The notes under the pieces were generated by a model that was given only the letters and a program-made list of their open reading frames with translations, was not told the DNA's origin and did no database searches. Positions 6,626-32,526 of a DNA stretch of 64,000 nt are shown here, in pieces. The number at the start of each line of letters is the position of its first letter. Position 1 is the first letter of the stretch. The stretch is from Ignavibacteria bacterium UBA6906 (lineage in GTDB: Bacteria; Bacteroidota; Ignavibacteria; UBA10030; UBA6906). The DNA is taken from NCBI GenBank assembly GCA_002451155.1, contig DKBG01000042.1:12133-76132 (forward strand), in the 5' to 3' direction. A program made the translations under genes and the position numbers.

Positions 6626-6669
6626 GGGAACAATTCACAGAACATGAACAAATCGGTTTCATTACCAGC

Positions 6670-12148: not shown

Positions 12149-12177
12149 TTGACATCCGCCAGCATTACTCCTATAAT
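12149..12177 (+). promoter_or_regulatory. near-perfect sigma-70-type promoter (TTGACA, 17-nt spacer, TATAAT) upstream of a lipoprotein gene
   Basis: TTGACA at 12149-12154, a 17-nt spacer, then TATAAT at 12172-12177. It sits in the divergent intergenic region, about 78 nt upstream of the ATG at 12255. Confidence 0.55.
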
Positions 12178-12254
12178 TGTTCTCCGCCCGGCCCGGCGGG
12201 GCGTTCGAGTCTTCCGGCAAGGGGTGGATCAAACCAGAACAGACAGGAATCCTT

Positions 12255-12908
12255 ATGGAAACCCGTATCTCCCTTCGATACGCTTTATTCGTCTTGCCGG
12301 TGTGTTGCCTCCTCTCCTGCAGCGGGTCCACGGAGATCACCCAGAGCTGGCGAAATCCCGACATTGAGCCGGTGGCTTTCAACAACGTGCTTGTGATCGG
12401 GATGAGTGACGACGCGATCGCCCGGGGGAATGTCGAACAGGCCGTTGTCAAAGAACTCCGCGGCGCAGGCGTCGCCGCACAGATGGGCATGGAAGTCTTT
12501 CCCCCCATGCTGTTCAAGGAGAAAATGGACAGGGAGAAAGCAAAAGTGCGGATCGCGGGAGCGGGAGCCGACGCCGTACTGCTTCTCACCCTTCTCGACA
12601 GCAGGACAACGGAGACCTACATCCCCGGTGCAATGGTCTACACTCCATCAGCGGGCTCCATGGCGATGTACGGCTACTGGTATGATTCATGGAACGTTGC
12701 GTACACGCAGGGCTATTACATGAATTCAAAGGAGATTATTGTCCAATCCAATCTCTACAGGACCTCCGATGAGGCTCTCCTCTGGGCGGGGAAGTCTAAA
12801 GCGACAGATCCCTCCTCCATGAGCAAGTTTGCGCGTCTTTATTCCAGGGTTATCGTACGGCAGATGGTTTCTGACGGAGTTTTTGCCCCCCGACCAGACG
12901 CCAAATGA
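12255..12908 (+). CDS. DUF4136-like lipoprotein
   Basis: The ORF track starts at a TTG at 12177 that overlaps the promoter -10 box. An internal ATG at 12255 gives METRISLRYALFVLPVCCLLSCSG, which carries a lipobox (LLSC). The rest resembles DUF4136 lipoproteins (SWRNPDIEPVAFNNVLVIGMSDD). Confidence 0.6.
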   Translation: METRISLRYALFVLPVCCLLSCSGSTEITQSWRNPDIEPVAFNNVLVIGMSDDAIARGNVEQAVVKELRGAGVAAQMGMEVFPPMLFKEKMDREKAKVRIAGAGADAVLLLTLLDSRTTETYIPGAMVYTPSAGSMAMYGYWYDSWNVAYTQGYYMNSKEIIVQSNLYRTSDEALLWAGKSKATDPSSMSKFARLYSRVIVRQMVSDGVFAPRPDAK

Positions 12909-13636: not shown

Positions 13637-14290
13637 TTAGATCACGAATATCAAACCTCCGGAGAAGCTGAACTGGGCGATGGGGATCCCCGCGGTGATC
13701 GCCAGGCCGGATCCCCCTGTTCCCACGTACAGTCCCCCACCACTGAAGACAATCGGAAACAGGGCCTGAGCCTGTACACGTATCCCGATTACCTCCGAGA
13801 AGTAGAACTTCCATCCACCCCCGAAATACATCGCCACGCGCCAGGTATCTTTTGCTCCCTCAAAATCGGGCTTCGCCCACCATCCGCCCAGCCCCACGGA
13901 GAAGAAGGGCGTGTTCATTTTCAGGGGTCGCATCTCATGCGAGTATCCGACCATGAAGTACTGGAAGAGAATATTGAATTCAAAATTGTTGACAGGCTCG
14001 GTGTTCGACCTGTAGCCGGAGCGGCTCTGGTGCGCAACATAGAAAACTTCGAGCTGGCTCGCCTTTTTCAAATCGAGATTGAACGCGACGCCGAAGTCAG
14101 GACCGCTGGTGGTCGAGACGTAGCCGTCTGTTACGCGGATATCGGTGTTGACCATATACCCGGCGAACGGAGAAATCTCAAGATTCTTCGGGATCGGGCC
14201 GTAATAGACCTGGGCGGCCGCTTCGGAGAGGCCCGAACTGAGCAACAGGATGGGGACCGTGAGTAGCCGACCGATGGAATTCATACACAA
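13637..14290 (-). CDS. outer-membrane beta-barrel protein, tandem paralog A
   Basis: Signal peptide plus AAQVYYGPIPKNLEISPFAGYMVNTD..., clearly paralogous to the next gene (EAQVYYAPKERSVEITPYAGYMLNTN...). Both end ...FSGGLxFxx. Confidence 0.65.
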   Translation of the reverse strand: MCMNSIGRLLTVPILLLSSGLSEAAAQVYYGPIPKNLEISPFAGYMVNTDIRVTDGYVSTTSGPDFGVAFNLDLKKASQLEVFYVAHQSRSGYRSNTEPVNNFEFNILFQYFMVGYSHEMRPLKMNTPFFSVGLGGWWAKPDFEGAKDTWRVAMYFGGGWKFYFSEVIGIRVQAQALFPIVFSGGGLYVGTGGSGLAITAGIPIAQFSFSGGLIFVI

Positions 14291-14418
14291 ATCCCTTCTT
14301 GTCCGATCGTCACCATTTTCATCGGGGAAACGCTGGCGTCAACGTACGAAGAAAACAGGTTGATATCAACGTCGCGATGTGACAGGGCACACAGTCGGCA
14401 TCAGCTCCAAAATGAGAC

Positions 14419-14457
14419 GGCCCGGATCATGTTCCTGACGGAGAAATGATCCGGGCC
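14419..14457 (-). terminator. hairpin terminator downstream of paralog B
   Basis: GGCCCGGATCAT-(15 nt)-ATGATCCGGGCC, a 12-bp stem 17 nt past the stop at 14474, followed on the minus strand by a U-rich tract (CUCAUUUUGGA). Confidence 0.55.
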
Positions 14458-14473
14458 GCAAGAATACAGACTG

Positions 14474-15124
14474 TTATAGAGAGAAGCTCAGGCCTCCTGA
14501 AAAATTGAACTCGGCGAAGGGAATCCCTGCCGATACGCCGAGCCCGGCCCCGCCTGTCCCGACGTAGAAGCCCCCTCCGTAGAACACGAGGGGAAAGAGT
14601 ACCTGGCCCTGGAGCTTCAGAGCAATCTTCTCCGAGAGGGAAATCTTTGCTCCACCTCCCAGCTGCATGGCTGCCCGCCAAACGGACTCCAGCGACGCAT
14701 ACTTCGGCTGAGCCCAGACGGCGCCACCCCCGACGGAGACGTACGGGTTCACTTTTGCCATCGGCTTGATTTCACGTACGAAGTTCAGCATGAAATACTG
14801 CATGGTCACGTCGAACCCGAAATCATCGTACCTGCCCGATTGCGAAATGAAGTCCGAGGTCGTGCTGTGATAGAGGTACTGGAGCTCTACCTGCATCCCG
14901 CGTTGAACATCAAATGCGATCGTCCCGCCAAACGCGGGATTATCTCTCGTGTTTACATATCCGTATGCCACGGTCATGTTTGTATTGAGCATGTACCCCG
15001 CATAGGGAGTGATCTCGACCGATCGCTCCTTCGGCGCGTAATAGACCTGCGCTTCAGCTGCAAGCAGCGCGAAGTGCATGAGACACGCTGTAAGGATGAC
15101 AATTCTCTGTATGCTTTTCATCAA
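14474..15124 (-). CDS. outer-membrane beta-barrel protein, tandem paralog B
   Basis: See paralog A. Signal peptide MMKSIQRIVILTACLMHFALLAAEAQ. Confidence 0.65.
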   Translation of the reverse strand: MMKSIQRIVILTACLMHFALLAAEAQVYYAPKERSVEITPYAGYMLNTNMTVAYGYVNTRDNPAFGGTIAFDVQRGMQVELQYLYHSTTSDFISQSGRYDDFGFDVTMQYFMLNFVREIKPMAKVNPYVSVGGGAVWAQPKYASLESVWRAAMQLGGGAKISLSEKIALKLQGQVLFPLVFYGGGFYVGTGGAGLGVSAGIPFAEFNFSGGLSFSL

Positions 15125-16957: not shown

Positions 16958-17611
16958 TTAATTGGTCTTGAGATAGGGCGACTGCGCGAACGCCTGGTCG
17001 ATAGCCTCTGTAATCCTGGTTGCCGGAGAAGAGGTGGCGTTTAGAAGTCCGTTCGCCGCGGCGAACCAGACGACTGGAAACCGTCTCTGAGAGTCCCGCT
17101 GTGCCGGGTCGAGCATGTTCACGTAGAGCGTGCCGGTGGAGTACGATCCCACGCTGACAGTCGGCGGATAGTACCAGCCGCCCCATCCACCATACCCGGG
17201 ATAGTATGGATACCAATAGTTGTAATAAATGGTCGTGCTTCCTGAGGCGGCGACGATCAAGGCAACGTCCGCCGGGTTTGTCGTATCCACAGCCACCCGC
17301 TGGTATCCGAGCGCTTGCATGTGGGCGGCCACTGTAGACAGGATTGCCTGGTCATACTTGCGTGACAGCAGCTTATTGGTGCCGGTGAGAGTATCTCCAT
17401 CGAGATGGATCACCGTGTCCGGCATCATGTAGGTATCGTAGGCCCCGAAATTCGTTCCCGGAGCATACCGGGTCATCACAAGATCGTAATCCGTAGCGGA
17501 GAGATTGTAGTCCGGATAGCAGGAGCTGAACAGGAGTGCTGCCCCAACGGCTGCATAGAGCATCAATAGCTTGCCACGGTTTACCGGGCCGACAAGAAAT
17601 GATAGTCGCAT
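16958..17611 (-). CDS. DUF4136-like lipoprotein
   Basis: Lipobox ...ALLFSSCYPDYN. It resembles the 12255 gene product, with Tyr/Trp/Gly-rich C-terminal repeats (YYNYWYPYYPGYGGWGGWYYPP). Confidence 0.55.
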   Translation of the reverse strand: MRLSFLVGPVNRGKLLMLYAAVGAALLFSSCYPDYNLSATDYDLVMTRYAPGTNFGAYDTYMMPDTVIHLDGDTLTGTNKLLSRKYDQAILSTVAAHMQALGYQRVAVDTTNPADVALIVAASGSTTIYYNYWYPYYPGYGGWGGWYYPPTVSVGSYSTGTLYVNMLDPAQRDSQRRFPVVWFAAANGLLNATSSPATRITEAIDQAFAQSPYLKTN

Positions 17612-18781: not shown

Positions 18782-19678
18782 TCAGAGAAGCGAGTAACTC
18801 AGACCGACCGAAAGCGCTTCTTTCAGCTGGGTCTTCGGTGTCACATCTGGATCACTGATGATCTGAACGTTAAAATTTACCGTGACCACCGTGTTTACTT
18901 TCATCGCAACTGTGTTGTCCCACCTCGCATAGCCGCGGCCGAGACTCGTGAACGGGAAGAAGGTCTCGACGCGGCTGATATACGCCATGTTCTCAGCAAA
19001 CGGCCACCTGAAATCCGCAATCGCTTCGAATCCTCCCCGGACCCTCGTCTTCTCGATCTCGGGTGTCGAAGGATCATCGGCGTACTGATTGAACTGGTCG
19101 GTGATGACCTCCCTCATCCCTGCCCCGAGCCGGAGCGTGAGCATGCTGGTCGGCTCGTACGCGACACCGACGCTCTGGGTCATGTAGCCCGGGTCGAAGA
19201 ATTTCGAGACCTGAACCCGCGCGGTATCGCCAGAGTACTTGTACCCCGGGGCAAACTGGGTTCGCAACGTGAAGGAGGCATACGGATTCACCGTAGTCCC
19301 CACGATATAAATCAACAGGGATTCAAAATAGATTTCGTCGTCCGTTTTCCGCGAGTCCTGGCCCTGGAGCTTGTTCTGCCCGTAGGCAAGCTTCAGGTAG
19401 TTGCTCCACTGTGTCTTCTCGGCACGATGGAGAGCGTTCCCGCCAAACCAGAGGCCCCACGCCAGAGAATTCTGACCCCCGGAAGCCCAGTTCTCGTACG
19501 CAACCTGGGACAGATTCAGCCCTGTTGTCGCAGCGAGATTCCATCCCATCACCTTGGTCGTGTCATGGCCTTTGGCAGATTCCTCCTGGAATTTCTTCTC
19601 CTTTTCGTCACCAATCTTCTGACCGAACCCCATCGGCACAAAGAGAAGGACCATCAACACTACAACCACATGCTTCAT
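18782..19678 (-). CDS. hypothetical secreted/outer-membrane protein
   Basis: The ORF track starts at 19816, but a signal-peptide start MKHVVVVLMVLLFVPMGFGQ maps to 19678. Composition is beta-rich and the C-terminus is ...LSYSLL. Confidence 0.5.
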   Translation of the reverse strand: MKHVVVVLMVLLFVPMGFGQKIGDEKEKKFQEESAKGHDTTKVMGWNLAATTGLNLSQVAYENWASGGQNSLAWGLWFGGNALHRAEKTQWSNYLKLAYGQNKLQGQDSRKTDDEIYFESLLIYIVGTTVNPYASFTLRTQFAPGYKYSGDTARVQVSKFFDPGYMTQSVGVAYEPTSMLTLRLGAGMREVITDQFNQYADDPSTPEIEKTRVRGGFEAIADFRWPFAENMAYISRVETFFPFTSLGRGYARWDNTVAMKVNTVVTVNFNVQIISDPDVTPKTQLKEALSVGLSYSLL

Positions 19679-19815
19679 CGCATACCTCCACGTTAGAATG
19701 TACGGGACACTGGTGAGCAACAGAATCTCTGAGGGACATCCTACAGCGCAGGAAAGGGATACACACGGTATCTCTTCACGCATCCCGTCCGGGTACGAGC
19801 AGTCAGCACATCCCA

Positions 19816-20424
19816 CTACTTGATGAACCCGTCCTGCCGGAGTGAGCGGGCAACGATTTTTGTAAGTGGAATGACTATATCCGTCGCCTTCTGGGGCGCC
19901 AGAGACTCCGAGACAGCACTCCAGACAAGACGTGTACTCTTTACGTCATAGAGGTTGGATTCAACATAGAAGACTTCATCCTGCCGGATGTATGACGGCT
20001 GCAGATAGTATGTGTATGTCATCGCATAGTAGCTGTACATGCCGTAATAGTCATTCGGAAGATTGTAGAACACCTTCTCCCGGCTTTCCCGGTTGATCTC
20101 CCGGCTGATCAGGACCGCATCGATCCCGAGGGGAAGGAATTTCGATTCAAACAGTTCCGGGGTCAGCTCTTCTGTCTTTTCCATGACGTCCATGCTGCGG
20201 ATCACCGTGACCTTGTCCTTCGCGAGATCTTCCTCAAGGGTCGTTTCGAACGCACCCCGCACCCATTGATCCTTCACGACGGCCATAACGAGGAGTTTCT
20301 TGAACGGCTTCCCCGCAAAGCCCTCATCCGCCCAGCTCTTTGTAACCTGGGTGCCCGGAGAGCAGGACAGGCACCAGAACGCTGGAAGGCACAGGCATAA
20401 TGATAGAATTCTCTGTCGTTTCAT
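19816..20424 (-). CDS. lipoprotein of unknown function
   Basis: MKRQRILSLCLCLPAFWCLSCSPG carries a lipobox. Confidence 0.5.
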   Translation of the reverse strand: MKRQRILSLCLCLPAFWCLSCSPGTQVTKSWADEGFAGKPFKKLLVMAVVKDQWVRGAFETTLEEDLAKDKVTVIRSMDVMEKTEELTPELFESKFLPLGIDAVLISREINRESREKVFYNLPNDYYGMYSYYAMTYTYYLQPSYIRQDEVFYVESNLYDVKSTRLVWSAVSESLAPQKATDIVIPLTKIVARSLRQDGFIK

Positions 20425-20542
20425 CTGGTTCCCGACGGTGTAAGTAGCACGATGCAGTGAACGGAATTAGCGATCCATTCTACATACTTGGCGGGGGAAT
20501 GTCAAGCAGAGACCAGGCTGACACGCGAGCCCTCCCCTTCCA

Positions 20543-21277
20543 TCAGTCCGGAATGCTGCTGACCTCGCGGGCCGCATCATCAAGATCTTCCGGCGTATCG
20601 ATTTCGATGCACCGCAGCGGTCCCACATCGACGGCCGCGATACGGTCTCCTTCCTGGATCAGCCGTTGAAAGGCCGCTTCGTAGAAGAGATTTTCCTGAC
20701 CGTCTTTCCCAACCATCCTGTCCAGCAGGCGGTAGAGTCTCGAGACTGATTCCTGGCTGAACCGTTCGATTCCGATTGATTCTCCCGCCGCCCGGGACGG
20801 GTCGACCTCTTTCCCGATTTCCCGCACCCACACGCCCGACCCGGTCAGGACCTTGATCTCCTCCGCGCCGAGCCGGCGATCCGTGCGGAGCGCGAGAGCG
20901 TTGACGTAGGGGGCGGTCAACAGCAGCGCAACGATACGCCGGTCAAACAGAATGTCACTGTCGAGCAGGAGCATCTCATCCCCCACGACTGCCGACTTCG
21001 CAAGCCAGAGGGAGTAGATGTTGTTGGTTGCCTCGAACCGCGAATTATGGACGAACGTCACACGGAGGTCCGGAAACGATCCGGCGAGAAACGTCCGCAC
21101 ATGATCAGCGAGATAGCCGGTCACGACGACGAGATCCCGTATCCCGTTCGCGATCAGGTTGTCAACCGTACGCTCAAGAATGCTCCTGTCACCCACAGGC
21201 AGGAGGCATTTCGGAGTATCATTAGTCAAGGGGCGAAGCCGCGAGGCCACCCCGGCTGCAAGGATCAGGGCGCGCAT
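20543..21277 (-). CDS. nucleotidyltransferase (cytidylyltransferase-like, NTP_transferase family); third gene of the head-group operon
   Basis: MRALILAAGVASRLRPLTNDTPKCLLPVGDRSILERTV, the G-x-G-x-R-L/P-K signature of LicC/IspD/GlmU-type transferases. Its start shares one base with the upstream stop (TAATG). Confidence 0.75.
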   Translation of the reverse strand: MRALILAAGVASRLRPLTNDTPKCLLPVGDRSILERTVDNLIANGIRDLVVVTGYLADHVRTFLAGSFPDLRVTFVHNSRFEATNNIYSLWLAKSAVVGDEMLLLDSDILFDRRIVALLLTAPYVNALALRTDRRLGAEEIKVLTGSGVWVREIGKEVDPSRAAGESIGIERFSQESVSRLYRLLDRMVGKDGQENLFYEAAFQRLIQEGDRIAAVDVGPLRCIEIDTPEDLDDAAREVSSIPD

Positions 21278-22167
21278 TACGGTTCACTCATACCGAGACG
21301 GGAGTCAATCCCGTTCTGCACCAACTTCAGCAGAATCGCGGCGACGTTGCCGATCAGCACGATCGCCCAGAGATAGAGGTCCAAGCGGTTCACCAGCGAT
21401 GCGACAATCAGAAGACTGATTTGGGTGGTCGGGCCTAGGAACGTCCAGAAAAACATGATCCGTCTGTTTGCCCGGACAAATTCCGCACGATCCGCGCGCG
21501 GGCGCCGTGCACTCAGCTGTTTCTGCGTAATGAGCAATTGTTGCAGGCCGGAATACCGAAGATAGATCCAGAGAAGTCCTCTGAGGACTGGTTTTCTATT
21601 CTCCCGGCTGAGCAGATCATACTCGCCGTGAAGGTCGTCGAGGTCTTTCTTGAGCACGCTGGCCCGGTCACGAGTGATATCGAGATACCGGTTCCGGTAA
21701 AAGTCGAGGAGCCCCGACTGGATTGCGTTGCTCAGTGCGGCTGCCACAACACATGTCCAGAGGAGAGCAGGAGTTTCGGACCGGCTGGCATAGCCGAACC
21801 CGATGCCCAAATACACTGCAATGCTTACGATGTAGTCCGAAATGCCGTCCAGGATACGTCCGAGCCGGCTTCCGTTCGCCTTCATCCGCGCAAGCATGCC
21901 GTCCGCACAATCCAGCACGTTAAAGAGCACCAGGAGCCCCGCAGCGACCATGAACGCGGTTGGGGATTCCAGTACGTAGACCGCGCCGGCGAGGATACCC
22001 AGCATTCCCGCCAGGACGGTCACCTGGTTGGGCGTGACCGGAGTGAGGGCTGCGAGTCGGACGAGGAGAAAGGCGAGGGGACGAAAGAAGACCAGGTCAA
22101 GAATTTCCTCGACCTCGACCCCCTTCAGCGTACTCTGATACTCACGCAGCAGTGAGAGAGCCGACAC
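21277..22167 (-). CDS. CDP-alcohol phosphatidyltransferase family membrane protein
   Basis: Signature D-G-x2-A-R-x8-G-x3-D-x3-D is present as LDCADGMLARMKANGSRLGRILDGISDYIV, with multiple hydrophobic helices. Confidence 0.8.
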   Translation of the reverse strand: MSALSLLREYQSTLKGVEVEEILDLVFFRPLAFLLVRLAALTPVTPNQVTVLAGMLGILAGAVYVLESPTAFMVAAGLLVLFNVLDCADGMLARMKANGSRLGRILDGISDYIVSIAVYLGIGFGYASRSETPALLWTCVVAAALSNAIQSGLLDFYRNRYLDITRDRASVLKKDLDDLHGEYDLLSRENRKPVLRGLLWIYLRYSGLQQLLITQKQLSARRPRADRAEFVRANRRIMFFWTFLGPTTQISLLIVASLVNRLDLYLWAIVLIGNVAAILLKLVQNGIDSRLGMSEP

Positions 22168-22170
22168 GGT

Positions 22171-23214
22171 CTATCCGAAGAATTCTTGTATGGCGTTAAT
22201 CACCAGCCGGTTTTGCTCTCCCGTCCCGAGGGTAATGCGAATGTGAGAGTTGAGCAGAGGTTCGTCCATAAACTTCAACACGATTCCCCGCTTCATGCAA
22301 TGGTCCTTCAAGGGACTCTTGATTGCGTTCGGGATCTCCACAAGGATGAAGTTCGCTTCGGATCGGTACACCGTACATCCGGGGAGAGACCCGAGGTCCC
22401 GATAGTAAAGTTCCTTATCGCACCGCATCTGATCCGCCACCCGTGCATAGTAGTCGGGAGAGTCGAGGGCCGCCACCGCCACTTCTTCCGAGAGCCGGTT
22501 GAAGCCGAGATACCGATGGGACATCTTTTCGAGTTTCTTCAGGCCCTCACCCACAAAGGCGAATCCGATGCGCAGGCCTGCCAGGGCATAGTATTTTGAA
22601 AAGGTCCTGACGATAAGGATGTTGGGATATTCCTCGAGAAGCCGGCGGACCTGAAGCCGCTGACTGTTGTACCAGTACGCCTCATCGAACACAACAGGGA
22701 CGTCTTTGAGGACCCGCAGAAGGTCGTCCATCTCCTCAGGCGACATTGCATTACCGGTAGGGTTATTTGGCGAACTGATGAACACCACCCTCGGTCGTTC
22801 CCGCTCATAGACCTTCATCATACCGTCAATATCGTACGAGAACGTGTCTTTTCCCTTGATCAGGGGATATTCGATATTCACTCCTCCCACTTCGCTCGCA
22901 ATTTCCTTGTAGTACCACCAGGAATAGGAAGGAATCATAAGCTTTTCACCGGCCCCCAGAAAACAGGCAACCGCCTGTTTCAAAAGATCTTCCGCTCCGT
23001 AGCCGAGAAGGATGCCTGATTCAGGGACAGCGAACTCTTTAGCCAGCCTTTCCGTGATGATGCTTTTCACTCCCCGCGTGTGCACTCGGGTATAGAAACT
23101 CATAACGGTGTGGTCCGCCCGACGAAGCGCATCAAAACATGCTGGAGCAGGGCCGTAGTTGTTTTCGTTCCGGTCAAGATAAATTGGAGACGGTGTAGGA
23201 GGAACACCACTCAC
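22171..23214 (-). CDS. HisC-family PLP enzyme (histidinol-phosphate aminotransferase / CobD-like phospho-amino-acid decarboxylase family)
   Basis: LDRNENNYGP (compare LSSNENPLGP), FISSPNNPTGN, VVRTFSKYYALAGLRIGF (PLP lysine), length 347 aa. There is a 3-nt gap to the next gene. Confidence 0.75.
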   Translation of the reverse strand: MSGVPPTPSPIYLDRNENNYGPAPACFDALRRADHTVMSFYTRVHTRGVKSIITERLAKEFAVPESGILLGYGAEDLLKQAVACFLGAGEKLMIPSYSWWYYKEIASEVGGVNIEYPLIKGKDTFSYDIDGMMKVYERERPRVVFISSPNNPTGNAMSPEEMDDLLRVLKDVPVVFDEAYWYNSQRLQVRRLLEEYPNILIVRTFSKYYALAGLRIGFAFVGEGLKKLEKMSHRYLGFNRLSEEVAVAALDSPDYYARVADQMRCDKELYYRDLGSLPGCTVYRSEANFILVEIPNAIKSPLKDHCMKRGIVLKFMDEPLLNSHIRITLGTGEQNRLVINAIQEFFG

Positions 23215-23367
23215 TGCATCCTCATAGTCGGTGCATGATTATACGGGTTTGGGGATTTCAACAGGGCAAGAACCAGGGTGAGATCTCACCCTTTGCGCAT
23301 GTTAGAGATTCAAAATCGAAAGATTTCACCGGAAAATCAAGGATTGCGAACGCAAGGCTACGGGACT

Positions 23368-24336
23368 CTATTTGTGCATCAACAGGCGCTGTTCACCGAT
23401 TTGCAGGATGACAATGCGTTCGGTGTCGAGGCCGCGGCGTGCCGTCTCAGTCCGGAGAACTTCCAACGCTTCTCCGGGATTGTCCAGCGACTCAGTGAAC
23501 GTCTCATAATGCATCGGAACCATCCACCTCGCACCGAGTTCACTCCAGGCGTTGAGAGCGTCGGAAGGGTCGAGATGGCGGATGCGAGTGTACTCGTGAG
23601 GCTTCATCGGAGCGATCGGAAGGAGCGCGAGATCGATACGGGGGAATCTCTTTCGTGTCTCAACGAAAAGTGTTGAATCATACCCCGTATCGCCTCCAAA
23701 GTACACCGTTCTGTCACGGTACTCAATCACATATCCCGTATAGCTCTCCCGCATCCAGGCCCCGTCGATTCCGTACCGCCACCCGTTGTGAAGGACTGGA
23801 ACCGCGGTAATTCGCAGGCCGTCCCGCTCCCAGGATTGCCAGGTAGAGAGCTCGCACATGGGAAAGTCAAAATTCGGCAGATAGACCAATCCCTGCGGAG
23901 GAACGAGCAGCTGACCGACCTTCGGCTCAATCATCTCGAGCGACACGGGTGAGAGGTGGTCGATATGCATATGCGAGATCAGGACCGCATCACAATCCGG
24001 CAACGAGTCAGGGGCCAGTCCGGGCTCGACCAGCCGACGTGAGAAGAAACCGACTGTCCGGGTAAAAACCGGATCGGTGAGGATGAATTTTCCGTCGATC
24101 TGAATCAAGACCGTCGCATGCCCGATCCAGAGGACAGACAGCCCCGCGTCGCCGCGCCGCGGATTGCCAATTCTTCCCGGGATTGAATCCGTGCTCCCGA
24201 AGAATGCAGCGGTGTTCCGACCGATAGCCGAGCCGGTGGACCGAACGGCGGCACAGCCCGCAATCACACCCCCGAGGGATATCAGCAGGGCCACGAGCCC
24301 CCACCAATTTGTACCCCAAAATTTCTCGCCGTTCAT
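23368..24336 (-). CDS. metallo-beta-lactamase-fold hydrolase (Lactamase_B_2 / NAPE-PLD-like) with an N-terminal membrane anchor
   Basis: HxHxDH zinc motif LISHMHIDHL and an N-terminal TM segment WWGLVALLISLGGVIAGCAA. The start is probably an internal Met (MNGEKFW), not the listed 24384. Confidence 0.7.
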   Translation of the reverse strand: MNGEKFWGTNWWGLVALLISLGGVIAGCAAVRSTGSAIGRNTAAFFGSTDSIPGRIGNPRRGDAGLSVLWIGHATVLIQIDGKFILTDPVFTRTVGFFSRRLVEPGLAPDSLPDCDAVLISHMHIDHLSPVSLEMIEPKVGQLLVPPQGLVYLPNFDFPMCELSTWQSWERDGLRITAVPVLHNGWRYGIDGAWMRESYTGYVIEYRDRTVYFGGDTGYDSTLFVETRKRFPRIDLALLPIAPMKPHEYTRIRHLDPSDALNAWSELGARWMVPMHYETFTESLDNPGEALEVLRTETARRGLDTERIVILQIGEQRLLMHK

Positions 24337-24350
24337 TTTCCCCTTCGCAG

Positions 24351-24962
24351 TCAGAAGTATCGAAGAGCCACCGTGACGCTCCATGGTGAACCAGGGAGCC
24401 CGGGGGAATGACCCACCTGAAGGCCCACAATTCCAAAAAACAGGTAGAGCCCCGCCTCATACGCAACGCTCTGCTCTGCTCCCTGCCGGGCATACGAGCA
24501 GCCGACCGACCCGGCCAGGTCCTCGCCGAACCCGCTCAACGGTATGTAGCCTCGCAGTCCAGCACGAACGAGCCAGGGACCACCTGATGTCCCGGAGGGA
24601 AAGAAAATCTCCGGATGAACGAAGAGTTCGATCGATCCATTATACCGGATCATGGGTTCGACAACCAGAACACGCCAGTGACTGAGACGCCGATTTATTC
24701 CCAGCGAATACAGAAGCGGGGTAACCTGCCATCTCAATCCGAACCTGGTCCCTTCCCCGGATCCGAAGTACCACTCAGGGCTCGGGATCAGCTGGGCGGC
24801 CGCCCATGGGAGAGTAACCTGCACGCCCGGTGGCGTAACCCTGGCGAGGGAATCTTCACTCTGTTCCCTGCCTTGCGATCTGGCTTCCGCTACAGGTCCT
24901 CCACTGCAGACAGCGCAGAGAAGAATTGCCAGAAAGACCGGAAACGAATTGCGGGGGAGCAC
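24351..24962 (-). CDS. hypothetical secreted/outer-membrane protein
   Basis: Signal peptide MLPRNSFPVFLAILLCAVCSG, a C-terminal ...VALRYF, and aromatic/Gly-rich composition. Confidence 0.45.
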   Translation of the reverse strand: MLPRNSFPVFLAILLCAVCSGGPVAEARSQGREQSEDSLARVTPPGVQVTLPWAAAQLIPSPEWYFGSGEGTRFGLRWQVTPLLYSLGINRRLSHWRVLVVEPMIRYNGSIELFVHPEIFFPSGTSGGPWLVRAGLRGYIPLSGFGEDLAGSVGCSYARQGAEQSVAYEAGLYLFFGIVGLQVGHSPGLPGSPWSVTVALRYF

Positions 24963-25134
24963 ACACGCCTCACGACGGATTCAAACACGGCCAAAAGAAG
25001 AGTTGCGTTACGATAACTTAGAAATTGAACGATTGAAAGTAAAGACAGATCACAGGCCTCGGCATCCTGATACCGCGCATTGAAACTGATGTACGGAACC
25101 CCTATTATTCATCGATTTCATCCCCTGAATCTGA

Positions 25135-28100
25135 GTGACTCCAGAACACGACAACATCACCCGGCAACCCGCACGAAGACTCCGAACCAACGTCATTCGG
25201 GCTTCAGGCAGGTTCATACGGCGGTTTCTGATAGGGACAGCGCTATTCATCCTCCTTCTTGGGATCCTGTTGCAGATCCCGCCGGTTTCCTTGCTGGTGG
25301 CCCGCTCGGTGTTGAACCTCGTCAACCCCTGGCCCGGGACCGTGGCGTCGATTGGCTCGGCCGGAGGCAGCTGGTTTTCTTCCCTCTCGCTCACGAACAT
25401 CCGAATCGCAAGTGCCTCGGATTCGCTGTTCATCTCGATTGACACCCTGCGGGCCTCGTATGACCTGAGCGCGTTGCTCGGCGGCACGCTCCATTTTCGG
25501 CAGCTCTCCATATCCCGTCCGACCGTCAGAACCCGTCTCCTTCCGGGAGGGAACCTGGTCCTCCTTCAACCGTTTGCCTCATCGGACACAGCCAGCCAGG
25601 ACACATCCGAGGGGCTCAGAGTCCGCGGCGATACTCTTCAACTGACAAACGGCGAGTGCACACTGTTGTTCCCTTCCGACACGACATTCCGACAAATCGA
25701 GGTTCATGATATTCACCTTCGGGGCGATTCCATCCTGATCGGGGGCGGCATTACAGCCTCCATAGATACTCTCCACTGCCGCGCGGCGATTGAGGGCCAG
25801 CGCGCGGGCGAATTTCGGGTCGACGCCGCAGGCACCCTTTCCGGGAGTTCACTTGATGTCCGTTCGCTCTCGATTGCGTCCGCGAGAAGCCGGATCGTCG
25901 GGAGGGGGTACGTTCCTCTGCCTTTTTCGCCGGTCCATTCCCTCCCCGGTACGAACCTCAGGCTCTCAGCCTCGCCCGTCTCGTACGCGGATCTTCACCT
26001 TCTTCTTCCCGGATTCGGACCAGAGGGAGAAGCCCGGGTCGATCTCGGAATCGCTGGAAACGGTGATTCGTCGTTCACCAACCTCACCCTCACGTTCCCC
26101 GGCGGGGGAAACATCGGGCTGACCGGGAAAGCCCGTGCGATGCCAGGCAGAATTCTTGCGCTGGACTTCACGGGTGCGAGCGAGAGGTTCAGTCCGTCAA
26201 GTCTCACCGGACCGCCGGATACCTCTGAATCGCTCCGGAGCAGGTTCAGAGTCATCGGCGCCGGGAGTTCTCCTGCTGATTTTTCCGGTTCAGCCAATGT
26301 TGAGGTGCTCCCCTCTCGTGTCGCGGACATGGGACCGGTCGAGGGGACACTGAACGCAGAGGCCCGTCAGGGCAACATCCGCGCGACAGTTCGAGGGGAC
26401 GTGGGCCCGATTCTGCTCAATGCCGACGTGCGCCTCACAACGTTCGATCCGGTTCCTGAATATGCCGTTAAGGGTACACTCACCATTCTCCATTCAGACA
26501 ATCCTGAGAATCTGCTCGAACGCCTGGGGGGGCTTGTATCAGAGTTCTCCCTTTCCGGCAGGGGATTTGACCCCGATTCAGCCCGGGCACATGCAACCCT
26601 GAAAGGGACGTGGAGTGCAAACCCCTACTGCACTTCCCTTCTGGTCCAGGGAACTTTTGTCTGCGACACCCTGCGTGCGAGCGGAGAACTTGGTACCGGA
26701 ACTGGCTTTGTGCGAACGACTGCCGAGGCAATTGTGAGAGAAGTTCCTCTCTACAGGATCCGTGTCCCCGAGTTCCGGACCATCTCGCTTGCCGTCTTTG
26801 GGAGCACGATCCCTGCTACGAGTCTAACAGGATCACTCCAGGCTGAAGTCTCGGGAGCATCGCTTGCCGAGCTGACCGGAACGGCATCACTCAGACTCGA
26901 TTCTTCACATTTCGCGAGCATTTCAGTGCAGGACCTGCGCACAGATATCACGATCGAACACGGACAGGTCCGGGCCACCGCGTCTGCCGCGAGTGACGCC
27001 GGCGCGATTTCGTTTCAGTGCGTGGCTGATCCCTTTGCAGCCTCCCCGTTTCTGACTCTCGAGGAATCAATGTTCCGGGGCATTGATCTCGGAAAGATTC
27101 TCGGAACGGACGATCTGTCAAGCGATCTGAACGGGAGCGTACAGATCCATGCTGAGGCCAGATCGATGCGTGATCTCTCCCTCGTACTGGATGGTTCGCT
27201 GCAGGACGGAGGAGGGGCAGTACAGGCCGGCGCGCGGGTATCGCTTGACAGCTCGACGGTCAACCGGCAGAAGATACGAGATGCAACGATCGCAATGACG
27301 CTTCTGGACGGAAGCCTTGAAACGTCCGTTGAAATCCGGACCCCAGATGGTGGGTTGACAGGACACGCACACGCGCGGCCTTTTGACCAGACTCCCTCAC
27401 TCTCGGTTCCGGCCTTGCATCTGAACCATCTTGATATCGGGGCCCTGACCGGCCGGAACGGCCTGCGCACCGATCTCACGGGCACACTCGCAGGGGCACT
27501 CCAGGGGGAATTGATTGAGAGCGCGACCGGGAACCTCTCGGTTGACCTCCTGAATTCGACAGTCAATGCTGCCACGCTGCAACGGGGCTCGCTTCAGGCC
27601 ACGATGGAGGGTGGGCCCCTGTCAGTTCACGGCAGAGCGGACTTCACAGAAGGCCGCGTGGCCCTTGAAGCCACCGGCCGCGTGACCCGGGGAGGCATGC
27701 GCGGGAAACTCTCCCTCGATATTTCCTCCAGCAATTTCGCGCCCCTGCTTGACGCCGACAGTCTTTTCCCATCAGCGCTCGTCGTGCGCGGTTTGCTCGA
27801 GGGAACCTGGGGGCCCCCGGCAGAAACGGATTTCAGGGCAACCCTCCTTGGACGTGGTTCATATCACGATTTCAAGGTCGACACGCTCGTCTGCGGGCTT
27901 TCGGTTCACGGGCGCACAATCGTAATCGATACGGCGCAGCTCATCACAAACGTCGGATCTCTTACGGCAGAGGGAACTCTTGTGTCCTTCGATTCGATGT
28001 CCAGTTCGTACTCGGATCTTTCGTTCTCTGCTTCCGCATCATCGTTCCAGCCACTTGAGCATATTTTGGGAATCCCCCCGACACTTTTGCGCAGCGCAAC

Positions 28101-30312
28101 CGTGTCGCTCCACGCTTCCGGGCCACCGGAGATGACGGAGATTCAGTGAGCTGCCGATCTTGACATCGCCGCAGCTGGTGACCTGGCAATAACTTCCTTG
28201 CAGGCGTCAATGGACGGGCGATTCGGGCCCTCTCTGAAACTCGAATCAGTACAAGGGAACGCGGAACTCAGCGGTTTCCAGTACGGTGCGTTCGCCCTGG
28301 AAAATGCGTCAGTCACGCTCCACACGATCGAAGGCAGGCATGAGATCGCAGCGTTGATCCGGTTCGACAGGCATTTCTCCGTAAGCCTGGGCGGGACTGC
28401 TTACACGGACCCCGACAGCGTGACGGTCCGTATCGATTCTCTTGTTGCCCGTAGTCTTGACCAGACATGGGTTCTTGAGCGGCCGGCAACGATTTCGTAT
28501 GGGGCGCGGTTTATTGTCCGGGACTTCGCTCTTCATGCCGGGTCAAGGGACCTCATAATCGATGGCATTCTCGACCCACAGGGCGAGCAGAATTTTACGG
28601 TCGTAGCGGATTCGATGAACCTGGGAAATTTTGCAAAGGTGTTCGGGCGCACGGACCTTGAGGGCTTGCTGTTTGCCAACCTACGAATCGAGGGTCCGGC
28701 TGGCGGAGCCCATGCGTCGGGCCGGATCTCGGCCCGGGTCCGGGAAGCCGGACGGCCTATAGGGGACTTCTTGGCAAACCTGGACTGGCACAGACAGGTG
28801 CTGTCCATCGATGGGAAGATCGACCAACCCGGCGGGGGAATCCTGACCATCTCCGCAATGCTGCCGGTCGAACTTTCTCTCCGTGGCGCTGCGGCGGAAG
28901 GGAACCCGGAGTCGACTCAGACAAAGGGAGACGGATCAGTCGACGTGTTGTTGACTGCGGACAGATTCAATTTCAACTTTCTCAGGCCATTTCTCTCTTC
29001 CCGATCGATCAGCTCGCTCGAGGGAATCCTTACTGCGAACATCCACGCGACGGGATCACTCGGCTCTCTTATGGCGACGGGTGGAGCATCGATTGACAGC
29101 GGCCGCATTGGCATCTCCCCTCTGGGAGTAGTGTATAGTGCCGTCCGGCTGCGATGTACCGCTCAGGGCAGAGAACTCCGTATCGAGAATGCAGAGGCCG
29201 CATCTGGGGAGGGGACTCTCCGTTGGAGCGGAACGCTGGATCTGGATGATCCTATGGACCCCAAAATGAACCTCGAGATTGCCGCGCAGCAATTCCTTGC
29301 CGCCCAGACTCCGGTCACGAAGGCAAACCTCTCGGGGTCATTACAGGTGGAAGGCACGGTGTCGGCGCCGACAATAACGGGCAGTCTGCTGATTAATGAA
29401 TCCTATTTTGTCATTCCCGAAACCATAGGGAGCAGCAGCGTGGAAGCCGTCAACCTGACTGCGGACGATTATGCAATGCTGGCAGAGCATTTCGGGTACA
29501 GACCACGCGTTGTTGCTCCCCGGCATGAGCCGTCCACGGTCGAGCCGACGCTCGACCTCACACTCGAAATTGCGCAGAACACGTGGATACGCAAGCGCAT
29601 CAATCCTACACTCGCAATCGAACTCAATGGGCGCGTCCGGGTCCTGCGAAGTCCGGGGCAGCCCATACGTCTTAGCGGCACACTGAGGCCAGTGACCGGG
29701 CGGAGTTACGTCGGACAATTCGGACGGCAGTTTGAGATTACGGGAGGCGAAATCGTCTTTGGGGGGATACCGCAGGACCTCGAATTGCACATTGATTCCG
29801 AATACAAAGTCCCTTCCAAAGGCGGATCCGGTCTTTCCGAGGTTGTGATCCGGATGAAGGTGCAGAGCAGACTTGGCCGGTTCACCTTCTCGCTGACCTC
29901 CGATCCCGCAATGGACGAGTCAGAGATCCTCTCCTATCTTACAACGGGCCAATCCCGGGCGGGCGCGCTCGCTAACACGGCAGACCAGGGTGGGCTTGCC
30001 GGAGCCATGGCACTGGAGCAGCTGGTGGGCGTTGCAGGAGGTCTCACGGAGGGCTCAGTCCCGATCGATGTGTTCCAGATCCGCCAGGATGGGGCGAGGG
30101 GAATTACAATTGTTGCCGGGAATTATGTAAATCCGAAGACGTACATGGGAATCCGTCAGCCCATTCTCATCAATCAGGGAACGCAGGAAACGTACTACGA
30201 CACGCGGACTCAGTTTGAGCTGGAATATGAAGCGCAGCCCTGGCTGTTTCTGAACTTCCAGGGCGGAAGCAGCCGACTGCTCCTGTTCCTCAAAGCCCGA
30301 CACGCGTACTGA
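25135..30312 (+). CDS. tamB: translocation and assembly module protein TamB (DUF490 C-terminus), interrupted by one in-frame TGA at 28147-28149; a possible pseudogene or recoding site
   Basis: N-terminal TM anchor (FLIGTALFILLLGILLQIP) and a long beta-rich repetitive body. The two listed ORFs, 25135-28149 and 28198-30312, are in the same frame and separated only by TGA. Translation reads straight through as ...PEMTEIQ*AADLDIAAAGDLAITSLQASMDG... The second ORF has no Shine-Dalgarno sequence and a TTG start. Confidence 0.7.
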
Positions 30313-30315
30313 GCC

Positions 30316-32526
30316 ATGCCTCCCACACCGACAGGTCGACGGACGGACAGATGCCCTGGCAGGGCAGCGGCCCGGGAATTTGGCCCGGCATGTCTGCGCA
30401 TCACGGGCTTGCTCATCGCCGCGACCCTGCTCCATGCGAGTCCCGGCCTGGGGCAGGAGACTCCGATACGGACCGATTTGATGACCCAGGTGAGTGAGAT
30501 CCGTTTTCGATTCGTCGAATCACGGAGCTTCACCGATGCCGATCTCCATTCCCGCATCGCGCTGACGGAACGCGGCCGGTTCGTGGGCCTCCGAAACTTC
30601 ATCTCCTTTCTCCCAATGATTGACCCGGTGGGGGACCATCCCTTTGACCCGATTGAGCTCCAGCGGGACGTGGTACGACTCCGTCACTTCTATCGGAACG
30701 CAGGATTTCTCTATCCTCGAATCTCCTATGACCTCCGCCTTGACCCGGAGGATAATCTCATCGACATCACCTTCGTCATTGATGAAGGACCACCGATTCT
30801 TCTCAAGGCGGTTCAGGATTCCGGGATCGGATCAGCGGGACACCCCGACCTTCCCGACGAGGTTGCCGCACAGTGGCGCCGATCGCGTTCGCGCATCGTT
30901 CCGGAGATCGGCAGTCGACTTAATCTGTATGATTTTCCAAGAGTCGAGGCTGCGAGCATCGCCTGGTTCAGAGACAACGGCTACCCGTTCGCGCGTGTCG
31001 AAACTTCACCGGCTATCGATACGGCAGCCCGTTCGTATACCCTCGTCCTGCACGTTGACACCGGTCCCAGATCCAGGATCGGCACAATCAACGTAACCGG
31101 CGAGGAATCTGTGCGGCCGCGTATAATCCTCCGGGAACTTCCGTTTTCCACAGGAGACTACTATTCTTCAGGAAAGATGCTGGAAGGACGGCGGGAAATT
31201 CTCTCGCTCGGTCTCTTTCGCCGGGCAATTGTGACGATTCCCGAGGGGACGCTCCCCGCCGACACCATTCCCCTCTCCGTTGAGGTATCCGAAGGCCCAG
31301 CGCGGGTCATTGGCGGATCGGGAGGGTTCGACTCCCGGGGCGGCCTGACTCTCCAGGCAGAATGGCTGCACCGAAACTTCACGGGAGATGCGCGGACGTT
31401 CTCCGTGTCCGGACTTGCACAGACGGGTGTCTGGGCCACCGAAAGAATCCCGGAGATCCTGTATCGCGGCGCAATAACGCTTACGCAGCCCTACGTATTC
31501 CACCGCAGACTATCCCTTGTATTCGGACCGTATATCGAATTCCGGGACGATTATCGAGACCGATCCAAGGGCCTGGGTTTCACCACGAATCTGATCTACC
31601 AGGTCGATCCCCTTCGATCTGTCGCTCTGCGTTACACAATTAGCGACCGGAAAATCGAAGAAGCGCGGTTTGGCGAATACACGTCGGGTGCGATCGATAT
31701 CCTTACACTCCTGAGCAATCTGGCAAAGGGAACCCGGGTTCTGAAAAACAGTCTGGCGGCACAGGTCTCATACGGATCACTAGACGACATCTCCGTCCCC
31801 CGGGAGGGGTATCTGCTTCGACCCAACGCGGAAGTCACGTTTCTTCCCTCCTTGAACAGCGTGGAGTACTTCCGTTTCGATCTCCCTGTCTATGCATTCT
31901 ACCCTCTGAACGATCAGTTCGGATTCGCCTCACGACTGACCGTCGGTTCCATCCTCCCGTTCGGCAAAGGACTGCCCCAAGGTGACGAAACGACTACGGA
32001 GAAGTTCCTCCAGCTACGAGATGTCGTTTTCACGGCCGGCGGTCCGGAGGACGTACGCGGATGGGGGGCACGCCTCCTTGGTCCGAAATTTCCCGACATC
32101 AGAGTGACAAGCCTGAGCCCCGACACGACGGTTGCGGTCGACGGGTATATTCCTCTTGGAGGGTTGTCGCGGATGACCTTCAGCTGCGAGTTTCGCATGC
32201 CGTTTCCCGGACTCGGCCAGGCGGGAGGGATCGCAGTCTACTTTGACGGCGCACGCGTATGGAACGCGAAACCCGAATTCAAATCGATCGGTGCGTGGGG
32301 GGATGAGGACAAATTCTTCTACGGAACGGGGCTAGGGGTACTGTACCGCCTTCCTTTTGGGACCTTTCGATTAGACCTCGGATACAAGTTGAACCCCTCC
32401 TTCCAGGATTTGAGGGAGGCATCGGATGTTGTGAAGGCCCTGGACGAGGGCACCCCACTTTCAGATATCCCGGTTTACAATTCGAAGCGGTATCATGTAC
32501 ATTTCTCGATCTCCGTAACCTTCTGA
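30316..32526 (+). CDS. Omp85-family outer-membrane protein (BamA/TamA-like, POTRA domains plus a C-terminal beta-barrel)
   Basis: 736 aa, with POTRA-like repeats N-terminally and a C-terminal barrel ending ...HFSISVTF. It starts 4 nt after tamB. Confidence 0.7.
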   Translation: MPPTPTGRRTDRCPGRAAAREFGPACLRITGLLIAATLLHASPGLGQETPIRTDLMTQVSEIRFRFVESRSFTDADLHSRIALTERGRFVGLRNFISFLPMIDPVGDHPFDPIELQRDVVRLRHFYRNAGFLYPRISYDLRLDPEDNLIDITFVIDEGPPILLKAVQDSGIGSAGHPDLPDEVAAQWRRSRSRIVPEIGSRLNLYDFPRVEAASIAWFRDNGYPFARVETSPAIDTAARSYTLVLHVDTGPRSRIGTINVTGEESVRPRIILRELPFSTGDYYSSGKMLEGRREILSLGLFRRAIVTIPEGTLPADTIPLSVEVSEGPARVIGGSGGFDSRGGLTLQAEWLHRNFTGDARTFSVSGLAQTGVWATERIPEILYRGAITLTQPYVFHRRLSLVFGPYIEFRDDYRDRSKGLGFTTNLIYQVDPLRSVALRYTISDRKIEEARFGEYTSGAIDILTLLSNLAKGTRVLKNSLAAQVSYGSLDDISVPREGYLLRPNAEVTFLPSLNSVEYFRFDLPVYAFYPLNDQFGFASRLTVGSILPFGKGLPQGDETTTEKFLQLRDVVFTAGGPEDVRGWGARLLGPKFPDIRVTSLSPDTTVAVDGYIPLGGLSRMTFSCEFRMPFPGLGQAGGIAVYFDGARVWNAKPEFKSIGAWGDEDKFFYGTGLGVLYRLPFGTFRLDLGYKLNPSFQDLREASDVVKALDEGTPLSDIPVYNSKRYHVHFSISVTF

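Follow-up and report, generated by a model that had tools for sequence, protein, structure and literature searches.

Bacterial aminophospholipids are made, in the textbook account, by the cytidine diphosphate (CDP)-diacylglycerol route of PssA and Psd, and bacterial CDP-alcohol routes are known, to our knowledge, only for choline, inositol, and aminoethylphosphonate. Here we describe three adjacent minus-strand genes in a stretch of 64,000 nucleotides from Ignavibacteria bacterium UBA6906 (contig DKBG01000042.1, positions 12,133 to 76,132), the whole of which is referred to below as the window. In order of transcription they encode a HisC-like pyridoxal 5'-phosphate (PLP) enzyme, a CDP-alcohol phosphotransferase, and a nucleoside triphosphate (NTP)-transferase resembling LicC and PntC (Table 1). 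We read this trio, tentatively and at somewhat less than an even chance, as a translationally coupled head-group module of the Kennedy type, with serinol phosphate from the transamination of dihydroxyacetone phosphate (DHAP) as the favored precursor.

The closest described systems each share part of this plan. In the Pnt pathway, as proposed for the trio, a PLP enzyme forms an aminoalkyl phosphonate or phosphate, a LicC-like NTP-transferase activates it with CTP, and the product is transferred to a cell surface or lipid acceptor (Tde1415 PntC-AEPT fusion, PMC6697681). The trio differs in having no phosphoenolpyruvate (PEP) mutase or phosphonopyruvate decarboxylase nearby, in using a HisC-like PLP enzyme of class I/II rather than one of class V, and in ending with a membrane enzyme of family PF01066, where the Pnt transferase is of the LicD type. 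The Lic, or CDP-choline, pathway likewise passes a CDP-activated amino alcohol to a phosphotransferase, and its LicC is the best solved relative of the trio's NTP-transferase, but the trio includes no kinase or uptake step; its head group would be made de novo by the PLP enzyme, and its substrate is probably a primary amine rather than choline. Treponema denticola, with LicCA and a cholinephosphotransferase, follows this CDP-choline route.

The pairing of an NTP-transferase with a CDP-alcohol phosphotransferase working from a soluble CDP-alcohol donor is also found in IPCT/DIPPS, in BEPIS, and in a putative inositol cluster of the Bacteroides vulgatus type (PMC9246714). Both window proteins weakly match the bifunctional IPCT/DIPPS model NF041135 (39.7 bits for the transferase and 60.8 bits for the NTP-transferase, well under the cut-off of 580). 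The B. vulgatus cluster, in which an NTP-transferase, a CDP-alcohol phosphatidyltransferase, and a haloacid dehalogenase (HAD) hydrolase stand together, is the nearest published arrangement that we found (PMC9246714). Unlike these inositol clusters, the trio has a partner of the aminotransferase fold in place of an inositol-phosphate synthase, and it has no HAD hydrolase. No account of the trio, or of the fusions described below, was found in searchable full text, which does not include most subscription journals; this agrees with the remark, in an earlier note made from the letters of this DNA, that no canonical bacterial operon has exactly this composition.

In the eukaryotic Kennedy pathway (ethanolamine kinase, ECT, and EPT/CEPT1), a phospho-amino alcohol is converted to a CDP-amino alcohol and then transferred to diacylglycerol by a PF01066 enzyme, and CEPT1 and CHPT1 are distant but detectable relatives of the trio's transferase. 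However, the trio's cytidylyltransferase belongs to PF00483/PF12804 and not to PF01467, a PLP enzyme stands in place of the kinase, and the transferase resembles archaeal AF2299 more closely than EPT/CPT. With AF2299 of Archaeoglobus fulgidus (4o6m) it shares the motifs TPNQ(I/L/V)T and DxxDGxxAR, although the trio transferase family does not have the N-terminal cytosolic domain of AF2299, and a charged helical segment is inserted in it at about residues 171 to 212. For the supply of the head group, the nearest comparison is with two Campylobacter jejuni enzymes, Cj1437 and Cj1436, which probably belong to the HisC family. Cj1437, a PLP enzyme, converts DHAP to (S)-serinol phosphate, and Cj1436, a decarboxylase, converts L-serine phosphate to ethanolamine phosphate (PMC11800397). 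Compared by described activity alone, the two yield the trio's two candidate phospho-amino alcohols from central metabolites, but their products go to an ATP-dependent amidoligase acting on a capsule sugar, with no activation by CTP (PMC11800397). What distinguishes the trio is a head group proposed to be made de novo by a HisC-like PLP enzyme, an uncharacterized clade of AF2299-like transferases, and a fixed three-gene architecture of broad phylogenetic distribution.

The distribution was established through the transferase. A pattern scan of about 186,000 species genomes, one genome per species, gave at least 550 relatives of this protein, of which the best 80 were fetched, nearly all of them in metagenome-assembled genomes; gene order was counted in 81 related loci, or 82 including the window. 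Synteny was assessed by tblastn and by clustering of open reading frames (ORFs), the neighbors in most loci being clustered without annotation. The order PLP enzyme, transferase, NTP-transferase is conserved in 69 of these 81 loci (70 of 82 with the window included). Transferase orthologs in the fetched loci are 38 to 52% identical to the window protein; PLP enzyme orthologs (48 to 62% identity) adjoin the transferase in 75 of 81, and NTP-transferase orthologs (46 to 61%) lie downstream of it in about 70. In the colinear loci the commonest junction at both boundaries is a 4-nucleotide (nt) overlap, and the genes flanking the trio vary from locus to locus. The labels of the fetched relatives include Ignavibacteriota/Melioribacteraceae, Aminicenantes, Calditrichota, Chlorobiota, and Kapabacteria, together with Bacteroidales, Saprospiraceae, Flavobacteriaceae, and Rhodothermaceae within the Bacteroidota; those with the colinear trio are labeled Ignavibacteriota, Bacteroidota, Aminicenantes, Calditrichota, and Chlorobiota. 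The adjacency of the three genes is far beyond chance, and the trio is a conserved module.

In the window itself the PLP gene ends in TAG and is followed after 3 nt (acc) by the GTG start of the transferase gene, whose stop in turn shares one base with the start of the NTP-transferase gene in the sequence TAATG. The three genes, their positions, their families, and both junctions had been proposed in the earlier note; ORF calls, Pfam matches, and direct reading of the sequence bear them out. A promoter-like site lies between the end of the NTP-transferase gene and the gene that comes next, which encodes a DUF4136-like lipoprotein. This site probably marks the 3' boundary of the unit, and with it in that position the trio looks like a self-contained unit of three genes. 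The spacer on the 5' side contains a 16-nt palindrome, GGGTGAGATCTCACCC, and an isolated TATAAT hexamer. A consensus scan called no sigma-70 promoter in it, and it folds no better than its shuffles (z = 0.27). A regulatory RNA upstream of the trio was considered and rejected, as nothing matched Rfam at E <= 1 in positions 19500 to 25500, nor did anything in the whole 64-kb window reach a gathering score.

The second and third proteins can be placed by family. The transferase matches PF01066 (CDP-OH_P_transf) at 51.8 bits against a cut-off of 22, and the motif that the earlier note had recognized in it is complete (D86-x2-D89-G90-x2-A93-R94-x8-G103-x3-D107-x3-D111) and invariant in 20 homologs of 41 to 51% identity. 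Its AlphaFold2 model is all-helical, with a pLDDT of 88.4. The closest solved relative is AF2299, at a profile E-value of 8.9e-17, a Foldseek TM score of 0.57, and an identity of 17 to 18%, followed by the phosphatidylinositol phosphate (PIP) synthases, DIPPS, and CEPT1/CHPT1. Scores against the NCBIfam equivalogs for synthases that use CDP-diacylglycerol fall far short of the cut-offs (PIPSynth, 45.1 versus 170; pgsA, 24.3 versus 109.1; pssA, 22.8 versus 107; the cardiolipin synthase ClsA, 25.1 versus 240). The protein is an integral membrane enzyme, and we propose that it would take a phospho-amino alcohol from a CDP conjugate and hand it to an acceptor in the membrane.

The NTP-transferase matches NTP_transferase (PF00483) at 47.1 bits and NTP_transf_3 (PF12804) at 46.7 bits, and it contains LAAGVASRLRPLT, a nucleotide-binding motif of the G-x-G-x-R-L type. 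Its best matches among solved structures are LicC (1jyk, 2.3e-15) and then the T. denticola PntC-AEPT fusion (6pd1, 1.4e-12), with sugar-1-phosphate nucleotidyltransferases appearing from 3.7e-08 on. The segments NNIYSLWLA and LLLDSD align with motifs of LicC and PntC, and D106 aligns with Glu104 of PntC, a residue that contacts the substrate amine (PMC6697681). LicC activates phosphocholine and PntC activates 2-aminoethylphosphonate, both with CTP (PMC6697681), and by this homology the window protein is proposed to be a CTP:phospho-aminoalcohol cytidylyltransferase.

The PLP enzyme, the first of the three, matches Pfam Aminotran_1_2 at 136.5 bits (1.7e-39). It scores 224.4 bits with the hisC equivalog TIGR01141, under the cut-off of 276.55, and 126.8 bits with the CobD equivalog TIGR01140, under the cut-off of 290.55 and 97 bits below hisC. 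Against sequences of the Protein Data Bank, enzymes of the HisC type score 132 to 95 bits (E. coli HisC, 95), the serine/threonine-phosphate decarboxylase SMUL_1544 (6oux) 90 bits at 1.3e-24, and CobD (1lc5) 45 bits at 5e-11. The order is the same in structure: for the AlphaFold2 model (pLDDT 84.9), the top Foldseek match is HISN6 (8bj3, TM 0.84), and 33 chains of histidinol-phosphate or closely related aminotransferases come ahead of the first decarboxylase, with 6oux and 1lkc at ranks 34 to 36. The enzyme is thus nearer to the histidinol-phosphate aminotransferases than to the CobD-type decarboxylases. The earlier note had placed it in a HisC/CobD family; the HisC-like part of that assignment stands, while the premise of a CobD-like decarboxylase is weakened by the profile scores and the Foldseek order.

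Eight residues, Y41, N151, D177, Y180, S206, K207, R215, and R326, are invariant in 73 sequences of the PLP family. They correspond to the PLP-binding and catalytic residues Y55, N157, D184, Y187, S213, K214, R222, and R335 of E. coli HisC, K207 being the Schiff-base lysine. Three features set the family apart. The N-terminal Tyr20 arm of HisC is missing, the protein starting 10 residues before its NEN motif; the segment SWWYYK (residues 98 to 103), at a position of the HisC substrate pocket, is a family-specific invariant; and the position of HisC R322 holds an invariant Lys. In the structures of E. coli HisC, Tyr20 of this arm binds the substrate phosphate. No association with his genes was seen in locus L001 (precomputed Pfam calls) or among the window proteins scanned, tblastn found no second HisC-like gene in the 64-kb window, and a metagenome scan with the distant HisC-like relative P0282 gave a single weak match only.

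How the three steps are linked is best seen where the cluster varies. In loci L065 and L066, the latter from the isolate Puteibacter caeruleilacunae JC036, the transferase is preceded by four genes for a supply of the phosphonate type: a LysE-like gene, a cytidylyltransferase-PEP mutase fusion (TIGR02320, 421 bits, above the cut-off), a phosphonopyruvate decarboxylase (TIGR03297, 463 bits, above the cut-off), and a fusion of a cytidylyltransferase with a PhnW/AepZ-like transaminase. We predict that each is a complete phosphonolipid cluster. Their transferases sit beside that of the trio-type locus L018 in a neighbor-joining tree, which argues that this type of transferase takes an aminoalkyl phosphate or phosphonate donor activated as its CMP or CDP conjugate. 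Elsewhere a class V aminotransferase replaces the HisC-like enzyme (L080), or the transferase stands with a TagD-like cytidylyltransferase of 148 amino acids (aa), a short-chain dehydrogenase/reductase (SDR), a LysE-like gene, and an NAD-binding protein (L076). An SDR like that of L076 was also observed near the trio in 8 other loci. Across these variants the genes that supply the head group are swapped, and the transferase and often the LysE-like gene are retained; in the phosphonate clusters and in L080, amine formation is assigned to an enzyme of the class V transaminase type (AepZ/PhnW-like).

A search of 1.8 billion representatives revealed fusion proteins in which a HisC-like domain follows an NTP-transferase domain, among them P0302, P0318, and P0342. 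The HisC-like part of these fusions scores 222 to 227 bits with hisC, likewise under the threshold, and shares the N-terminal NEN...PxPxC and SWxYYK motifs with the trio's PLP enzyme. Searching with P0342 gave more than 1,000 proteins; the 120 listed are all 626 to 695 aa long, nearly all have both domains, and named sources among the matches are Treponema (including Treponema succinifaciens), other Spirochaetia, and Lachnospiraceae. The family appears uncharacterized. In all three genomic contexts seen (L085, L086, and L087), each of them a glycan cluster, the gene directly before the fusion gene encodes a LicD phosphotransferase or a TagF-like glycerophosphotransferase. LicD and TagF-like phosphotransferases use CDP-alcohol donors; for LicD, this has been described in work on the Pnt system (PMC6697681). 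An Fe-ADH/HisC fusion, P0370, was set aside as belonging to a different group, since its HisC domain, at 322 bits, scores above the cut-off for true hisC. Together, the supply-gene swaps and the fusions indicate that the NTP-transferase acts on what the PLP enzyme makes and that the nucleotide conjugate is passed to the co-encoded phosphotransferase, in the trio the PF01066 membrane enzyme.

Methyltransferase genes were observed in two of these settings: in L057, from Bacteroidales, a UbiE/PmtA-like S-adenosylmethionine-dependent methyltransferase follows the transferase at the usual position of the NTP-transferase, and in L087 a methyltransferase gene follows the fusion gene. N-methylation of an amino head group is one possibility at which they hint.

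A homolog of the LysE-family translocators, about 250 to 280 aa long, adjoins the cluster on either side in 45 of the 81 related loci, and it has no counterpart in the window, as tblastn confirmed, or in the window's own clade. A role as flippase, exporter, or importer is possible, and in many relatives the protein would be a fourth, accessory component. We observed it with the transferase across all types of supply (trio, phosphonate, SDR, and class V), in L001, L009, L018, L039, L043, L066, L076, L080, and others.

The proposed pathway would run as follows. In step 1 the HisC-like enzyme would turn a central metabolite into a small phospho-amino alcohol; in step 2 the LicC/PntC-like enzyme would join it to CTP to give a CDP-aminoalcohol; and in step 3 the membrane transferase would move the phospho-amino alcohol onto a hydroxyl acceptor in the membrane, with release of CMP. 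By analogy with enzymes of the Kennedy type, the acceptor is most likely diacylglycerol and the product an aminophospholipid, although the acceptor may instead be a ceramide, an ether lipid, or, as with DIPPS, an alcohol in solution. This succession of PLP enzyme, cytidylyltransferase, and CDP-alcohol transferase is the core logic of the earlier note, and homology and comparative genomics lend it support. The precursor should be a central metabolite because homologs of PEP mutase and phosphonopyruvate decarboxylase are absent from the neighborhood: tblastn queried with Ppm and Ppd of L066 found none within 6 kb of any of the 70 trio loci, Ppd matched only L065 and L066 among the fetched loci, and neither enzyme was found in the 64-kb window. 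For the chemistry of step 1 we favor transamination, in which DHAP and glutamate would give serinol phosphate, because the PLP enzyme is consistently nearer to aminotransferases in profile, sequence, and Foldseek comparisons and because the variant clusters form their amine with a transaminase-type enzyme. A further reason is that the natural substrate of HisC is an acetol phosphate, of which DHAP is the simplest abundant analog. The retained catalytic residues of the aminotransferases also back this choice, as does the precedent of Cj1437 (PMC11800397).

Several points weigh against it. HisC and CobD have a scaffold and phosphate-binding residues in common, and SMUL_1544 scores 90 bits to the 95 of E. 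coli HisC, so that decarboxylation is quite possible. Ethanolamine phosphate is the closest isostere of aminoethylphosphonate, and a lipid with serinol phosphate is not known to have been reported. No physiological substrates are assigned to AF2299, and the related DIPPS takes a soluble acceptor. Finally, codon 67 of the window's transferase gene encodes Glu where the family has a nearly invariant Gly, a substitution that could impair the enzyme in this strain. If the PLP enzyme were a decarboxylase like CobD, SMUL_1544, or Cj1436, phosphoserine or threonine phosphate would give ethanolamine phosphate or aminopropanol phosphate, and the trio would be a CDP-ethanolamine route to phosphatidylethanolamine. 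This reading, which is essentially that of the earlier note, we regard as unlikely but as a serious candidate. All that is said of steps 2 and 3 serves it equally; a single enzyme would be enough, phosphoserine being a central metabolite; ethanolamine phosphate is the nearest phosphate analog of the 2-aminoethylphosphonate donor implied for the same-clade transferase of Puteibacter; and the E-value of the SMUL_1544 match joins the precedent of Cj1436 (PMC11800397) on its side. It is opposed by the 97-bit deficit of the CobD model, the poor match to CobD 1lc5, the decarboxylases' low structural ranks, and the transaminase-type enzymes of the variant clusters, and a genome that has pssA and psd would have no need of another route to phosphatidylethanolamine.

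The favored pathway could also be correct as far as the CDP-aminoalcohol and end on something other than a bulk glycerolipid, such as a soluble alcohol (the product then being, as with DIPPS, a phosphodiester solute that the LysE-like protein might export), a ceramide or ether lipid, or an envelope glycoconjugate. DIPPS, with its soluble acceptor, is among the closest characterized relatives of the transferase, the LysE-type translocator is frequently adjacent, the Treponema and Lachnospiraceae fusions feed LicD or TagF-like enzymes in glycan clusters, and the window neighborhood is envelope-related (TamA/TamB, outer-membrane proteins, and lipoproteins); the same neighborhood lends weak backing to a membrane role. 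Yet no glycosyltransferase genes are conserved beside the trio, the LysE-like gene is missing from the window's own clade, and glycans are decorated from CDP-alcohols, as far as we know, by LicD/TagF-type and not by PF01066 enzymes; a non-glycerolipid acceptor is held to be improbable. Two other explanations have very little to recommend them. The PLP enzyme might be a 2-aminoethylphosphonate transaminase in a phosphonolipid module whose PEP mutase and phosphonopyruvate decarboxylase are encoded elsewhere, as the full phosphonate clusters around same-clade transferases and the rank of PntC among the solved relatives of the NTP-transferase would allow. The blank tblastn searches around the trio loci and in the window speak against this, as does the fact that known aminoethylphosphonate transaminases are of class V and not HisC-like (PMC6697681), and we consider it very improbable. 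It is just as hard to credit that the PLP gene is the organism's own histidinol-phosphate aminotransferase gene, adjacent by chance to a pair making a head group of the inositol or glycerol type. HisC is the best family match with every catalytic residue kept, and pairs of an NTP-transferase and a CDP-alcohol transferase do exist without a PLP enzyme (IPCT/DIPPS; the putative B. vulgatus inositol cluster, PMC9246714), but the protein scores under the hisC cut-off, has no Tyr20 arm, and shows the family's own SWWYYK in its pocket. Moreover, the gene is coupled to the transferase gene by a 4-nt overlap or 3-nt gap in about 70 genomes of several phyla with no other his genes nearby, and related domains are fused to NTP-transferases. 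An analogy with the cobamide nucleotide loop (CobD, CobY, and CobS) was rejected, the transferase being a PF01066 protein and not CobS, with no cob genes nearby.

The gene on the other side of the 5' spacer encodes a metallo-beta-lactamase (MBL)-fold protein with a lipoprotein-like N terminus (…VIAGC…). The earlier note was right that it is NAPE-PLD-like, but it lies upstream (5') of the PLP gene and not downstream of it. Human NAPE-PLD (4qn9) is its best solved relative at 1.9e-25, the next match being at 1.6e-07. The presence of a phospholipase D like NAPE-PLD, which acts on N-acyl aminophospholipids, beside a module for an aminophospholipid is suggestive. Nevertheless, membership of the MBL gene in the module was rejected, since this gene and the 203-aa gene upstream of it share synteny with L050 only, 1 of the 81 related loci.

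Strain variation could be followed on a metagenome contig of the European Nucleotide Archive (ERR688355), which is 99.72% identical to the window over 17.7 kb. The differences, 25 synonymous, 11 nonsynonymous, and 13 intergenic, look like natural variation between strains. Within the trio, the window differs from the near-identical contig L083 by G67E in the transferase, where the contig has Gly, and by T122A in the NTP-transferase. The TamB-like gene is split in the window by an in-frame TGA into ORFs of 1,004 and 704 aa; L083 (99.7% identical) has TGC at this position and an intact gene of 1,725 aa, and the TGA reflects a nonsense polymorphism or else a mistake in the assembly.

Other features of the window were noted in passing. 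Around the trio lie two tandem paralogous outer-membrane-like proteins of 216 to 217 aa and several paralogs of a DUF4136-like lipoprotein, and with the divergent TamB/TamA genes these form an envelope-biogenesis neighborhood. A coupled pair of a GHMP/galactokinase-like kinase and a second NTP-transferase, beside an alpha-L-fucosidase and a GH20 hexosaminidase, looks like sugar salvage unrelated to the trio. An ORF of 1,364 aa has as its sole Pfam match the C-terminal two-thirds of Aminotran_1_2, at its extreme N terminus; it could represent an aminotransferase, truncated or frameshifted, with a long spurious ORF of high GC content after it, and tblastn found no similarity between it and the trio's PLP enzyme.

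Table 1. Positions of the trio, its flanking signals and neighbors in the window, and of variant and fusion genes in other loci
Feature	Sequence	Position	Strand	Remarks
HisC-like PLP enzyme gene	Window	22171-23214	minus	347 aa; GTG start; ORF call and Pfam
CDP-alcohol phosphotransferase gene	Window	21277-22167	minus	296 aa; GTG start; ORF call and Pfam
Codon 67 of the transferase gene	Window	21967-21969	minus	
LicC/PntC-like NTP-transferase gene	Window	20543-21277	minus	244 aa; ORF call and Pfam
Spacer between MBL gene and PLP gene	Window	23215-23367	minus	153 nt; probable 5' limit of the trio, with its promoter region
Palindrome in the spacer	Window	23291-23276		
TATAAT hexamer in the spacer	Window	23243-23238		
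Promoter-like site TTGACA-17-TAGAAT	Window	20477-20505	minus	11 of 12 consensus positions; consensus match only
MBL-fold, NAPE-PLD-like hydrolase gene	Window	23368-24384	minus	
TamB-like gene	Window	25135-30312	plus	
In-frame TGA in the TamB-like gene	Window	28147-28149	plus	
TamB/TamA genes	Window	25135-32526		
Outer-membrane-like and DUF4136-like paralogs	Window	12177-12908; 13637-15124; 16958-17611; 19816-20424	minus (13637-15124)	
Kinase and second NTP-transferase genes	Window	10005-11971	minus	
Alpha-L-fucosidase and GH20 hexosaminidase genes	Window	4295-9329		
1,364-aa ORF	Window	150-4244	plus	
Phosphonate-type cluster	L066	1417-6894		
TagD-like, SDR, transferase, LysE-like, NAD-binding genes	L076	4810-8528		
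UbiE/PmtA-like methyltransferase gene	L057	7418-8287		
NTP-transferase/HisC-like fusion genes	L085; L086; L087	7001-8971; 7001-9022; 7001-8908		635-673 aa

At its widest, the proposal would comprise a DHAP aminotransferase, CDP-serinol, and an undescribed phosphoserinol (2-amino-1,3-propanediol phosphate) lipid widespread in Ignavibacteriota, environmental Bacteroidota, Aminicenantes, and Calditrichota, with the PLP enzyme/cytidylyltransferase pair, fused in Treponema and Lachnospiraceae, as a general route to CDP-aminoalcohols that also decorates glycans through LicD and TagF-like enzymes. In this full form we think it doubtful. If the proposed module is real, it would be a new entry point to the biosynthesis of bacterial membrane lipids, with a precursor made by the cell itself and without a kinase or uptake; among about 186,000 species genomes, at least 550 carry a relative of its transferase. 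The module could account for some of the "unidentified aminophospholipids" of Bacteroidota-like bacteria, and it would give a function to many genes that now bear the label "histidinol-phosphate aminotransferase family" or "CDP-alcohol phosphatidyltransferase family". Synthesis of lipid head groups would also be tied to the glycan-decoration modules of spirochaetes and clostridia.

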